Of a stretch of DNA of 30,561 bases, positions 18,540-21,561 are shown piece after piece. How positions within the stretch are numbered: the stretch's first letter is position 1; the number at the start of each line of letters is the position of its first letter. The notes below the pieces were generated by a model. That model had not been told where the DNA came from. It searched no databases and saw nothing but the letters and a program-made list of their open reading frames with translations. This DNA comes from an uncultured Pseudomonadales bacterium (lineage in GTDB: Bacteria > Patescibacteriota > Microgenomatia > UBA1400 > MFAQ01). The translations under genes and the position numbers were made by a program. The stretch is taken from the NCBI GenBank assembly GCA_964418355.1, contig CAYQLI010000001.1, positions 1-30,561 on the forward strand, written 5' to 3'.

Positions 18540-19007
18540 ATGATTACACGAGATGGGATGCCGTACCGACAAAGTACTTTGGGGATTGTGACCGGTAGCG
18601 ATGGTAAATTTCTGATCGTAAATAAAATGGTATACCAAGATAATCAATGGAGCTTTCCCGGCGGCGGAGTAGACGAAGGGGAAACTCCAGAACAAGCCTT
18701 GAAACGCGAACTGGTAGAAGAACTAATGTCAGATAAATTTGAGGTTGTTGGTCAAAGTCAGAACCCCTATGTTTACGAATGGCCCGACCAAGTAATTGAG
18801 ACGGCCTACAAAAAGAATGGAAAATACTTTCGGGGAACACAACTGACTCAATATTGGGTCAAGTTCATGGGTGAACAAGATGAAGTGAAAGCTGGGGATG
18901 GGGTTAGAACTGTCAAATGGGTTACGCGGGAAGAACTCAAGACACATCTGGTTTTTCCCAATCAGTGGGAAAATGCAGAAAAGGTAATAAAGGAGTTCTC
19001 TAGTTAA
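18540..19007 (+). CDS. Nudix hydrolase, RppH/Ap4A-hydrolase-like
   Basis: FPGGGVDEGETPEQALKRELVEE Nudix box. Confidence 0.9.
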   Translation: MITRDGMPYRQSTLGIVTGSDGKFLIVNKMVYQDNQWSFPGGGVDEGETPEQALKRELVEELMSDKFEVVGQSQNPYVYEWPDQVIETAYKKNGKYFRGTQLTQYWVKFMGEQDEVKAGDGVRTVKWVTREELKTHLVFPNQWENAEKVIKEFSS

Positions 19008-19008
19008 C

Positions 19009-19500
19009 ATGGACGGTGCATCTGTATTTATATTCGATAAGAGTAAGAAAAAGATCCTCTTGGTAAAGAGAAGAGACATTCCGGTTTGGGTCATTCCCGG
19101 CGGAGGCATTGAGAAAGACGAATCTCCAGAAGGAGCAGCAGTCAGAGAAGCCAAGGAGGAATCTGGGTATGACATTAAAATAATCCGAAAAGTGGCTAAA
19201 TATACTCACAAGGGAAGTGGAAAGATTAATCATCTTTTTGAAGCAAGTATGACCGGCGGCGAAGCCAGATTAAGCAATGAATCAAAAGAAGTAGCTTTCT
19301 TTGATCTCAATAACCTGCCAGAGCTTCGTCATCCGTTACTCTCAGAATGGCTTAGGGACCTGGACAAACATTCGAAAAACGTTATCGAGAGAGAAATCCA
19401 AGGAGTAACAATTAAACAGGCGTTGGGACAGTTTCACAAGCATCCAATCGCAGTTATCAGGTTTATTCTGGTTAGATTCGGAATTAGGATCAACACATAA
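19009..19500 (+). CDS. Nudix hydrolase
   Basis: IPGGGIEKDESPEGAAVREAKEESG Nudix box. Confidence 0.9.
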   Translation: MDGASVFIFDKSKKKILLVKRRDIPVWVIPGGGIEKDESPEGAAVREAKEESGYDIKIIRKVAKYTHKGSGKINHLFEASMTGGEARLSNESKEVAFFDLNNLPELRHPLLSEWLRDLDKHSKNVIEREIQGVTIKQALGQFHKHPIAVIRFILVRFGIRINT

Positions 19501-19508
19501 CCTGTTTG

Positions 19509-19517
19509 TGTTACAAT
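19509..19517 (+). promoter_or_regulatory. Extended -10 promoter (TGtTACAAT)
   Basis: TGnTACAAT ending about 7 nt before the aptamer 5' end. Confidence 0.6.
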
Positions 19518-19523
19518 AATTTT

Positions 19524-19623
19524 CAGTCAAGAGGTAGTGAGGGAACTAGCCCGTTATTAACTACCAACAACCGATCCTGAAAAGGACACGGTGCTAAATC
19601 TAGCCCGAAAGGGGGAAGACAAG
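19524..19623 (+). promoter_or_regulatory. SAM-I (S-box)-type riboswitch aptamer, variant P1
   Basis: TCAAGAG; P2 GGTAGT/ACTACC with GA-GGG...CCC; CAACC/GGTG core; loop CTAG complementary to J3/4 CTAG; P4 CCC-GAAA-GGG; P1 GTC/GAC. Confidence 0.85.
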
Positions 19624-19648
19624 CCGTAAGGAAACATGGTTTTTGTTT

Positions 19649-19670
19649 GTCCTCTTTCGGAGGACTTTTT
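19649..19670 (+). terminator. Intrinsic terminator of the riboswitch expression platform
   Basis: GTCCTC-TTTCG-GAGGAC followed by TTTTT, 22 nt before the ATG. Confidence 0.8.
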
Positions 19671-19692
19671 AGTAATTAGGGGCAAACAAACT

Positions 19693-20469
19693 ATGTCTAG
19701 ACCGGAAAAGTTGGAGGGGGGTTTTATCAATCAAGTGTTTCGCGAAGATGGGGTGGTCGCCAAGGAGTTTGGCGGCGAGGCTCTTGTGCGCAAATCTTGC
19801 GAAAATCGTTTACGAAGAGAACGACATGCCTTGGTGCGTTTTGGAGGAAGTCTGGCACCAATATTTTTGGGATTTGATGACGATGGCAGATTGCTTCAAG
19901 AGTTTCTCCCCGGTGGAGTACTGGAAGGTAAGGCAGTCGAGAAGGACTATGTCGATTCTGGTACCCTTCTATCCTCAATCCACTCCCCCGTGGCTTGTAG
20001 TATTGATTACATTCAAAATGCTTTGGAGAAAGCATGGGATAAGTCACGAAAATTGGCGGCAGAAATTATGGAAAATGAGGGGTTGGAATTAACAATATTG
20101 GTGGATTGGGAAAAGGTATCAAAAATGGGAGCAACGAGGGTCCACCGAGACTTCTGGTTTGGGAACATTATCAGAACAAATGACGGGGTGCGCGCGATTG
20201 ATTGGGAGTTTGCCGGAATTGGCAGTCCTTACGAGGATTTGGCGATCGTAGAGCTATGGATTTTTCGGGAATATGAGAGGACCCAGCCCCAGTGTCGCGA
20301 GTGGTTTGTCCGGGGGTACGGAAAAGACTTCGACCAGCTGACGATTATCGAATTTCTGAAAGCGAAATGTGTTGAGTTCCTGGCGACGACGAATCTGGCT
20401 GAATATCTAAACGAGGACGCTGATGGCTTTTACCACAACAAAGTTAAACTATTGAAAGAACTAGTATGA
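19693..20469 (+). CDS. APH/choline-kinase-family small-molecule phosphotransferase
   Basis: GGFINQVF glycine loop, VAKEF lysine, VHRDFWFGNI Brenner motif, AIDWEFAG. Start at MSRPEK. Confidence 0.88.
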   Translation: MSRPEKLEGGFINQVFREDGVVAKEFGGEALVRKSCENRLRRERHALVRFGGSLAPIFLGFDDDGRLLQEFLPGGVLEGKAVEKDYVDSGTLLSSIHSPVACSIDYIQNALEKAWDKSRKLAAEIMENEGLELTILVDWEKVSKMGATRVHRDFWFGNIIRTNDGVRAIDWEFAGIGSPYEDLAIVELWIFREYERTQPQCREWFVRGYGKDFDQLTIIEFLKAKCVEFLATTNLAEYLNEDADGFYHNKVKLLKELV

Positions 20470-21014
20470 GACAACAAAACGGTCACTATCACGCACAAAC
20501 CCTGTATGAGGTTACTGGCTGGAGACACTTTGTCTATTTATGGTGGAGTCTTCTAGCCGCGAGACTATTATCGGCAAAATCGCTGACGGCCCACATGCCC
20601 TTGGAGATCCAACATCCAAGGATCTTTAGAAAAAAGGAGTTGGGAAATAGACTGATCGGCTTTGGTGAATTTTGGAAAAAGATTTTTTCGGTCAAACTAT
20701 ATTGGGAGAATGCGCCATTGCTGATCTATGGAACTTGGAAATTGAAATTTGGGCAGACTGATTGGCGTCTCATGCCGGAAACTATTGACCTGTGTTTGGA
20801 TACCGGTCATCTGATGCAGGGAAGCAAAAACGTGTCGGGGGCAAGAAAAAGAATTGAGAAAATCTTAATAAAACGCGGGGCGATGATAAAGCACCTGCAT
20901 CTGCACGAAAATGATTTGATCCACGACAGTCACTGGCGGCCAAAAAAGATATTGTCCAAAAGATTACTGGGCCGGCTTAAGTCAGGAAGGACTTTTATCT
21001 TTGAGAAAGGATGA
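20466..21014 (+). CDS. Xylose-isomerase/AP-endonuclease-2-like metal TIM-barrel protein, N-terminally short
   Basis: TAHMP, WENAP, CLDTGH, HLHLHEN, DSH, FEKG metal-ligand pattern; ATGA-coupled to the kinase. Confidence 0.7.
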   Translation: MRQQNGHYHAQTLYEVTGWRHFVYLWWSLLAARLLSAKSLTAHMPLEIQHPRIFRKKELGNRLIGFGEFWKKIFSVKLYWENAPLLIYGTWKLKFGQTDWRLMPETIDLCLDTGHLMQGSKNVSGARKRIEKILIKRGAMIKHLHLHENDLIHDSHWRPKKILSKRLLGRLKSGRTFIFEKG

Positions 21015-21045
21015 AAGATTCATCATTTGTGACATAATCAGCTTA

Positions 21046-21561
21046 ATGTTTATGAAACTTTTAGCCTTTTTCTCTGACCAAGATCTGGATAGCAAGCTAC
21101 CGACTCCCGACCGTTCGGGGTATAACGTCCGCCGGGCCGGAAGAGCGGTGCTAACTAATTCGAAGGGAGAAATAGCATTAATGTATGTTGGTAAACATTC
21201 CATGTATAAGCTGCCGGGGGGTGGGATAGAAGAGAATGAAGATATCCATGAAGGACTAAAAAGGGAAATCATGGAAGAAACCGGCTGCCACGCCAACATT
21301 GGTGATGAGGTTGGAATTACGATCGAGATGCGAGACCAATGGAAGTTGGCCCAGATCTCCTATGTTTACCGGGCGGTGGTCACGGAAGAAACAAAAAATT
21401 TTAACTACACTGATGAGGAGATCGAAAGAGGTTTTGCTTTGAAATGGGTCCCCATTTCCGAGGCGATCTCCCTGATGGAGAGTCATACTTCGCCCTCAGA
21501 TTATGATGCTAAGTATATGCAGAAACGGGATCTGACCATCCTCAAGGCGGCTCTAGGATAA
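21046..21561 (+). CDS. Nudix hydrolase
   Basis: LPGGGIEENEDIHEGLKREIMEETG. Start 21046 (7 nt after CATAAT) or 21052. Confidence 0.9.
   Translation: MFMKLLAFFSDQDLDSKLPTPDRSGYNVRRAGRAVLTNSKGEIALMYVGKHSMYKLPGGGIEENEDIHEGLKREIMEETGCHANIGDEVGITIEMRDQWKLAQISYVYRAVVTEETKNFNYTDEEIERGFALKWVPISEAISLMESHTSPSDYDAKYMQKRDLTILKAALG

Follow-up and report, generated by a model that had tools for sequence, protein, structure and literature searches.

The locus analysed here raises the question of whether the leader of a small kinase operon is a genuine SAM-I riboswitch and, if so, whether it still responds to SAM with bases exchanged beside the ligand. The leader lies at 19521-19670 of the window, by which we mean the whole stretch of 30,561 nucleotides. 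An initial annotation had described it as an unannotated SAM-I-type riboswitch with a complete OFF switch, and had proposed that its affinity or ligand selectivity may be altered.

For family assignment, the segment 19400-19750 was scanned against Rfam with E-value thresholds. The covariance model (CM) RF00162 (SAM-I) aligned to 19521-19623 end to end, over model positions 1-108, with 42.2 bits and a significant E-value of 1.8e-8, so the model search proposed in the initial annotation returned the expected family. The score is 2.2 bits under the RF00162 gathering score of 44.4, a curated, operational cut-off, and for this reason default annotation misses the aptamer. A whole-window Rfam scan with gathering thresholds reported only a tRNA and no SAM match, and the leader was rightly called unannotated. 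RF00162 was the best scorer in clan CL00012 for this segment; the overlapping clan match to SAM-IV and SAM-I/IV (RF00634, RF01725) scored lower and was dropped. All four helices of the four-way junction, P1 to P4, were placed by the CM as follows.

19521-19528, plus strand: P1 5' strand, with the core G19526 (equivalent to A6), U19527 (U7) and C19528 (C8), from the CM alignment
19529-19532, plus strand: J1/2 AAGA, including G19531 (G11); canonical
19533-19565, plus strand: P2, with P2a at 19533-38/19560-65, P2b GGG/CCC at 19541-43/19550-52, and L2 AACUAG at 19544-49
19539-40 and 19553-59, plus strand: P2 internal loop, GA opposite GUUAUUA, at the k-turn position, with G35 changed to U
19566-19595, plus strand: P3, with A42-U60, A43·C59 (19567/19594), C44-G58, A45-U57, bulged A46, C47-G56 and C48-G55
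19596-19603, plus strand: J3/4 AAAUCUAG, whose CUAG (19600-03) pairs with the L2 CUAG (19546-49) as a pseudoknot
19604-19613, plus strand: P4, CCC-GAAA-GGG
19614-19623, plus strand: J4/1 GGAA and the P1 3' strand, with G19618 (G86), A19619 (A87) and C19620 (U88), then AAG

The ligand-contacting nucleotides U7, G11, A45, A46, C47, U57, G58 and A87 are present (19527, 19531, 19569-71, 19592-93 and 19619), and C44 is canonical too; the claimed retention of U7, G11, C44, A45, U57 and G58 is thus borne out by the CM alignment. GUC-AAGAG occupies 19526-19533, and the P3 strands AACAACC/GGUGCU carry a UCCU-GAAA-AGGA tip at 19575-86. Each element listed in the initial annotation was found in its place. 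U19521-23 can pair only across a CA bulge, and extending P1 by the outer UUU/AAG pairs is unfavourable (-36.9 versus -41.9 kcal/mol). P1 is therefore effectively limited to three Watson-Crick pairs, G19526-C19620, U19527-A19619 and C19528-G19618, in agreement with the 3-bp helix previously proposed.

The structure was then examined by covariation in an alignment of 25 related aptamers. The tested structure comprised P2a, P2b, the P3 base and the L2-J3/4 pseudoknot. MAFFT left the P1 and P4 3' strands unaligned, and P1 was tabulated separately with a complementarity script; the few 3' strands that it assigned wrongly were checked by eye. As a result, 96.2% of the cells were paired in the tested structure, versus 24-43% with slid partners; double changes occurred at 10 pairs, and no shuffle reached the observed values. 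P2a, P2b and P3 covary. The pseudoknot was paired in 100% of the 25 sequences, with CG/UA and GC/AU covariation and four forms (CUGG/CCAG, CUAG/CUAG, UUGG/CCAA and UUAG/CUAA). Because the pseudoknot pairs covary, it was correctly described as compensated. With a full-length family match and covariation of helices and pseudoknot, the claim of a SAM-I architecture holds, and 19521-19623 is, on its predicted fold, a genuine SAM-I class riboswitch aptamer.

Against this canonical background, the CM alignment gives A6 changed to G at 19526, U88 changed to C at 19620, and G43 changed to A (19567) opposite C59 (19594), which confirms both the G-C pair G19526-C19620 in place of A6-U88 and the A·C mismatch in place of G43-C59. 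Of the claimed k-turn, the 5' GA (19539-40) is there, but the 3' strand reads UUAA instead of the consensus UGAA (G35 to U, 19558). The position is occupied by an asymmetric P2 internal loop, with GA on the 5' side and GUUAUUA on the 3' strand, and the pseudoknot that requires the bend is supported. A6, U88, G43 and G35 are among the highly conserved SAM-I nucleotides (PMC3764141), and the aptamer deviates at A6/U88, G43 and G35. These bases are not assembly errors, since they are identical in two runs and kept in a strain of about 93-95% similarity from another site; contigs from independent metagenomes also agree with the window. From the aligned bases, the exchange of A6-U88 for G-C is a compensated double substitution that would preserve P1 pairing. 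As a separate observation, the GUUAUUA strand occurs in the window and in a close relative (L025), a similar loop is present in a distant relative (L035, 2302-2428), and three others (L064, L066, L067) have UAGNAA instead. SAM-I aptamers of CPR bacteria seem to tolerate non-consensus P2 internal loops with the pseudoknot kept.

The 6-88 pair is of interest for its position next to the ligand. The sulfonium is faced by carbonyls of U7 and U88, described as O4 in one source (PMC6914780) and as O2 in another (bioRxiv 10.64898/2026.03.23.713157). A change of affinity caused by G6-C88 is conceivable, and a G-C pair would presumably also stiffen so short a P1. By general chemistry, C88 would retain the O2 carbonyl in the minor groove, where G6 adds an amino group.

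Downstream of the aptamer lies the expression platform, and upstream of it a putative promoter:

19490-19517, plus strand: promoter-like site, TCAACA, a 16-nt spacer and TACAAT, with TG at 19509-10
19605-19660, plus strand: antiterminator, predicted fold, 19605-15 with 19650-60 and 19617-22 with 19643-48
19649-19670, plus strand: intrinsic terminator, a 7-bp stem GUCCUCU/GGAGGAC (19649-19665) with a 3-nt loop, and U5 at 19666-70

The predicted transcription start is at about 19523-19526, the 5' edge of P1. A start inside P1 or at its edge, as previously suggested, is plausible because the TG-extended TACAAT ends at 19517 and each of the nine kinase-linked leaders has a -10-like box 3-9 nt ahead of P1. 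The terminator stem has four GC pairs, sits upstream of the ribosome-binding site (RBS, 19679-83), and is identical in L025. In the unconstrained fold of 19521-19675, P1 and P4 are absent and the antiterminator forms, at -52.8 kcal/mol (z = -3.98), whereas with P1 and P4 imposed as constraints the model shows the aptamer together with the terminator, at -41.9 kcal/mol. The antiterminator takes up the 5' arm of the terminator as well as P4, J4/1 and the 3' strand of P1, and it accommodates the substitutions found in L025 and in a landfill strain (run X5). An antiterminator had been proposed and it does appear in the models, not only as the 6-bp GACAAG/UUUGUC pairing first given but as the long hairpin 19605-19660. 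The terminator/antiterminator OFF platform is otherwise as proposed, and the modelled layout is that of the usual kinetically driven OFF switch. Two relatives differ on this point: in L026 (810-935) and L057 (362-490), the start codon lies about 14 nt after the aptamer, without a terminator. The same aptamer lineage thus seems to use a translational platform in L026 and L057, and a terminator in the window.

The platform precedes three overlapping genes, the third of which is a probable member of the operon:

19693-20469, plus strand: gene 1, small-molecule kinase of 258 aa with an APH/choline-kinase fold (PF01636, 4.7e-12; RBS AGGGG at 19679-83)
20466-21014, plus strand: gene 2, 182-aa partner, whose start overlaps the kinase stop
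21001-21561, plus strand: gene 3 (probable), NUDIX hydrolase, overlapping gene 2 (PF00293, 1.3e-12)

An alternative start of gene 1 at ATG 19636 (19636-19638) was rejected, as the landfill strain removes it by G19638A; the conserved start with an RBS is 19693. The AlphaFold (AF2) model of the kinase has a pLDDT of 94.5, and its top Foldseek matches are LicA, choline/ethanolamine kinases and APH(3'). Among solved structures, type II homoserine kinase, choline/ethanolamine kinases and APH(3') come nearest, with TM scores of 0.55-0.64. Identity with MtnK was discarded, for the kinase gave no MtnK model match and no MtnK structure appeared among the top Foldseek matches. MtnA, AdoHcyase and RuBisCO were searched for in the 95%-complete genome and none was found, and a PNP_UDP_1-type nucleosidase/phosphorylase is encoded there. 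The kinase is not a known Met/Cys/SAM gene. The 182-aa partner has no Pfam match; since proteins 51-52% identical to it follow the kinase in L026 and L031, the two form a conserved cassette. An OFF response to SAM suggests that the kinase product is needed when SAM or methionine is short.

Some further observations concern the gene neighbourhood. Three NUDIX genes lie within 3 kb, two in tandem just upstream of the riboswitch (18540-19500) and one ending the operon. In L026 (2282-5714), the kinase-partner pair is followed by a His_Phos_1 phosphatase, a second APH-type kinase (340 aa) and an NTP_transferase, which hints at a lic-like pathway of phospho-sugar or phospho-alcohol activation. A 44%-identical kinase in L028 (4001-5689) has no SAM aptamer; it lies in a phage-like run of small ORFs, and its neighbours are a PNKP-like HAD phosphatase and an HNH endonuclease. 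Finally, the CPR contig L031 (6867-7044, minus strand) has a T-box-like match ahead of an aminotransferase/tRNA-synthetase region; with 44.4 bits against a gathering score of 93, it is a candidate sub-threshold T-box leader.

The host genome is of the CPR/Patescibacteria type (1.05 Mb, 95% complete), and the nearest public homologues of its genes are in Candidatus Harrisonbacteria and Yanofskybacteria MAGs. The window aptamer is the only genuine SAM-I match in the assembly; a second candidate (C6, 18.7 bits) was rejected because it lies inside a minus-strand ORF. The host metK (G000:C107:2157-3098, L023) is cut by a contig end, with its N-terminal ~66 residues and its leader missing, and could therefore carry a riboswitch of its own. 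The metK match contains one in-frame TAG. Among relatives, RF00162 matched once per genome in 20 of the 101 related genomes from the order, and likewise in 24 of a sample of 151 from the class. Most of these matches are directly upstream of metK, which is also where the same-genus riboswitch is located.

We then followed the kinase. A search of 285 further genomes from the order did not find it, but about 35 metagenomic relatives were recovered; a SAM-clan aptamer is present at about 9 of the 19 kinase loci with enough upstream DNA. The 82%-identical kinase of L025 is preceded by an aptamer with G6-C88, A43·C59 and the UUAA loop, in which the P3 tip is different but compensated. The landfill strain X5, about 93-95% similar, likewise keeps G6-C88 and A43·C59, and its P3 tip has changed from UCCU-GAAA-AGGA to UCCCG-GAAA-CGGGA. 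Three strains thus keep the aptamer core and platform with compensated changes of the P3 tip. More distant kinases, 54-56% identical (L026, L027, L057), have SAM-I aptamers of 45.0-46.2 bits (L026 45.0, L057 46.2), also with G6-C88. Because the leader is conserved across these relatives, the comparison points to purifying selection on the RNA and not to a relic. Canonical A6-U88 SAM-I aptamers precede the distant kinase orthologues L035, L064, L066 and L067, and a SAM-I/IV aptamer precedes L059.

To place the exchanged pair, G6-C88 variants were collected and their downstream genes tabulated, as the initial annotation had advised. In a collection of 185,579 species, a strict SAM-I core pattern starting ATCAAGAG (A6) had at least 120 matches in many phyla, and the equivalent starting GTCAAGAG (G6) had a single one, which lies inside a TPR-like protein-coding ORF and was discarded as chance, leaving no true match. 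A looser U5-G6 pattern retrieved four true aptamers; three belong to the window's class and precede metK, and the fourth comes from a Chloroflexi MAG. Excluding that of the window, 6 of 43 aptamers from related genomes have G6-C88 (L011, L018, L019, L020, L231, L236), and in these unbiased genome samples metK is downstream of all six. Over the 52 aptamers collected, pair 6-88 is A-U in 39, G-C in 11, and unresolved in 2. G6-C88 is rare overall and very rare outside the lineage, yet recurrent within it, and all G6 aptamers share a GAC[AG]NG(CC) P1 3' strand, which suggests one sub-lineage. Five kinase-linked aptamers have A43·C59, but so do two that precede metK (L219, L227), which rules it out as a kinase-specific signature. 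The 6-88 and 43-59 states occur in all four combinations before the same kinase family. Two records with CPR-type metK riboswitch contigs are labelled 'Bathyarchaeia archaeon' (L238, DATKWK010000017.1) and 'Gammaproteobacteria' (L241, CAZTEW010000025.1). L241 has the same sequence as L236, which comes from a genome in the class of the window, and L238 shares its aptamer and flanks with L231; these taxon labels look unreliable.

Taken together, we assign a probability of roughly 0.78 to the reading that 19521-19670 is a functional SAM-sensing SAM-I (S-box) transcriptional OFF switch for the operon of the kinase, the 182-aa partner and the NUDIX hydrolase, with its ligand unchanged. Transcription would start at the P1 edge, and the aptamer would fold into the four-way junction with the L2-J3/4 pseudoknot, as the CM match and the covariation indicate. 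SAM, bound by homology between P1 and P3, would hold the short P1 together with P4, so that the 19649-19665 hairpin and its U-run could form and transcription would stop before the kinase RBS. Without SAM, 19605-19622 would pair with 19643-19660, the stronger antiterminator, and the operon would be read through. G6-C88 and A43·C59 would be lineage polymorphisms of CPR SAM-I aptamers, with pairing kept (G-C) or tolerated (A·C), and may tune affinity or P1 stability for the same ligand. Since canonical and variant states precede both the same kinase family and metK, the simplest reading is that all these aptamers report SAM, and the G6-C88 aptamer most likely still senses it. Weighing against this reading are the score below the gathering threshold, the deviations at A6/U88, G43 and G35, the three-pair P1, the departure from the k-turn consensus, and a downstream kinase that is neither a known Met/Cys/SAM gene nor MtnK.

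The proposal of altered selectivity in the initial annotation was not supported. It would make G6-C88, together with A43·C59, a specificity variant that reports SAH, MTA, dcSAM or another SAM-related ligand to the kinase operon, or that discriminates poorly between SAM and SAH. This is unlikely, although several points speak for it. The sulfonium is faced by the carbonyls of two uridines, U88 being one (PMC6914780; bioRxiv 10.64898/2026.03.23.713157), and high conservation is documented for A6, U88 and G43 (PMC3764141). Beyond the lineage G6 is very rare, the gene association is unusual, and spermidine-sensing SAM-I variants set a precedent (PMC10853860). Against it, all six G6-C88 aptamers from the unbiased samples of related genomes control metK, and orthologues of the kinase stand behind canonical A6-U88 SAM-I and SAM-I/IV aptamers. 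The metK gene is the archetypal SAM-repressed gene. Moreover, the four 6-88/43-59 combinations all serve one kinase family, J1/2 and the P3 loop are unchanged, and cytosine keeps the minor-groove O2 carbonyl. In a bolder form, the G6-C88 sub-lineage, which here also combines A43·C59, a P2 lacking its k-turn and a 3-bp P1, would recognise its ligand in a measurably different way: it would bind SAM more weakly, discriminate less well between SAM and SAH, or respond to a SAM by-product. That signal would then be coupled to an uncharacterised CPR kinase/truncated-barrel salvage module. This form is improbable to about the same degree.

Loss of function appears less probable still. A decaying SAM-I relic, left by rearrangement before an unrelated accessory gene, would account for the sub-threshold score, the mismatches in P1 and P3, the broken k-turn consensus, the kinase missing from 285 other genomes of the order, and the same-genus riboswitch sitting at metK. 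However, aptamer and kinase have stayed together at kinase identities of 82%, 56% and 54%, the P3 changes are compensated, and the platform is intact. SAM-clan aptamers precede the kinase at about 9 of the 19 loci whose upstream DNA is long enough, and the ligand-contact nucleotides are retained, which makes a relic quite improbable. A ligand-independent attenuator or terminator that resembles SAM-I by chance is favoured by the sub-threshold score and nothing else; given an E-value of 1.8e-8 over all 108 model positions and the covariation of pseudoknot and helices with homologues, we consider it extremely improbable.

The SAM-sensing OFF switch thus preferred has several implications. The locus offers a naturally occurring test of the electrostatic model for how SAM is told apart from SAH: in a small aptamer lineage of CPR bacteria, the sulfonium-facing A-U has given way to G-C. 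G6-C88 aptamers appear to still regulate SAM synthetase, and there the real contribution of the A-U pair could be measured. The conserved, uncharacterised cassette that joins the APH-fold kinase to its 182-aa partner comes under predicted SAM control, and SAM control of orphan genes is a classic route to function in organisms that cannot be grown alone. Finally, the Rfam SAM-I threshold misses real switches in ultra-small bacteria.

Among known systems, the B. subtilis S-box also controls mtnK (methylthioribose kinase), a SAM-I OFF switch before a small-molecule kinase of the APH superfamily. The kinase of the window, of 258 aa, differs from it in having no MtnK model match, nearest folds among choline/ethanolamine kinases and APH(3'), and no MtnA found. 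Spermidine-sensing SAM-I variants have a changed J1/2 and P3 internal loop and are associated with polyamine genes (Salvail et al. 2023, PMC10853860). They resemble the window aptamer as close SAM-I variants with changed conserved positions in a transcriptional OFF switch, but here J1/2 and the P3 loop keep their canonical bases and the neighbourhood contains no polyamine gene. A spermidine reading was rejected on this basis, with AAGAG in J1/2 and CAACC in P3, and a kinase, an unknown protein and a NUDIX hydrolase downstream.

The metK-linked CPR aptamers (L011, L018, L019, L020, L231, L236) are closer. They have the same G6-C88 pair and GAC[AG]NG strand, a promoter abutting P1, and compact leaders, but control SAM synthetase, have a P1 of 4-7 bp, and in several cases use RBS-proximal platforms in place of a terminator. 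With the SAM-I/S-box riboswitches proper (RF00162; T. tengcongensis metF, B. subtilis yitJ), the window aptamer shares the P1-P4 junction, the L2-J3/4 pseudoknot and the OFF platform, as well as AAGAG in J1/2, the CAACC/GGUGC core of P3, and U7, G11, C44, A45, C47, U57, G58 and A87. It differs in the G-C pair for A6-U88, the A·C for G43-C59, the lack of G35, and a P1 of three Watson-Crick pairs. S-box riboswitches control Met/Cys/SAM genes, whereas that of the window is predicted to control a kinase with an APH/choline-kinase fold; on the best reading, what is new here is a predicted SAM-I switch shutting off an uncharacterised kinase operon.
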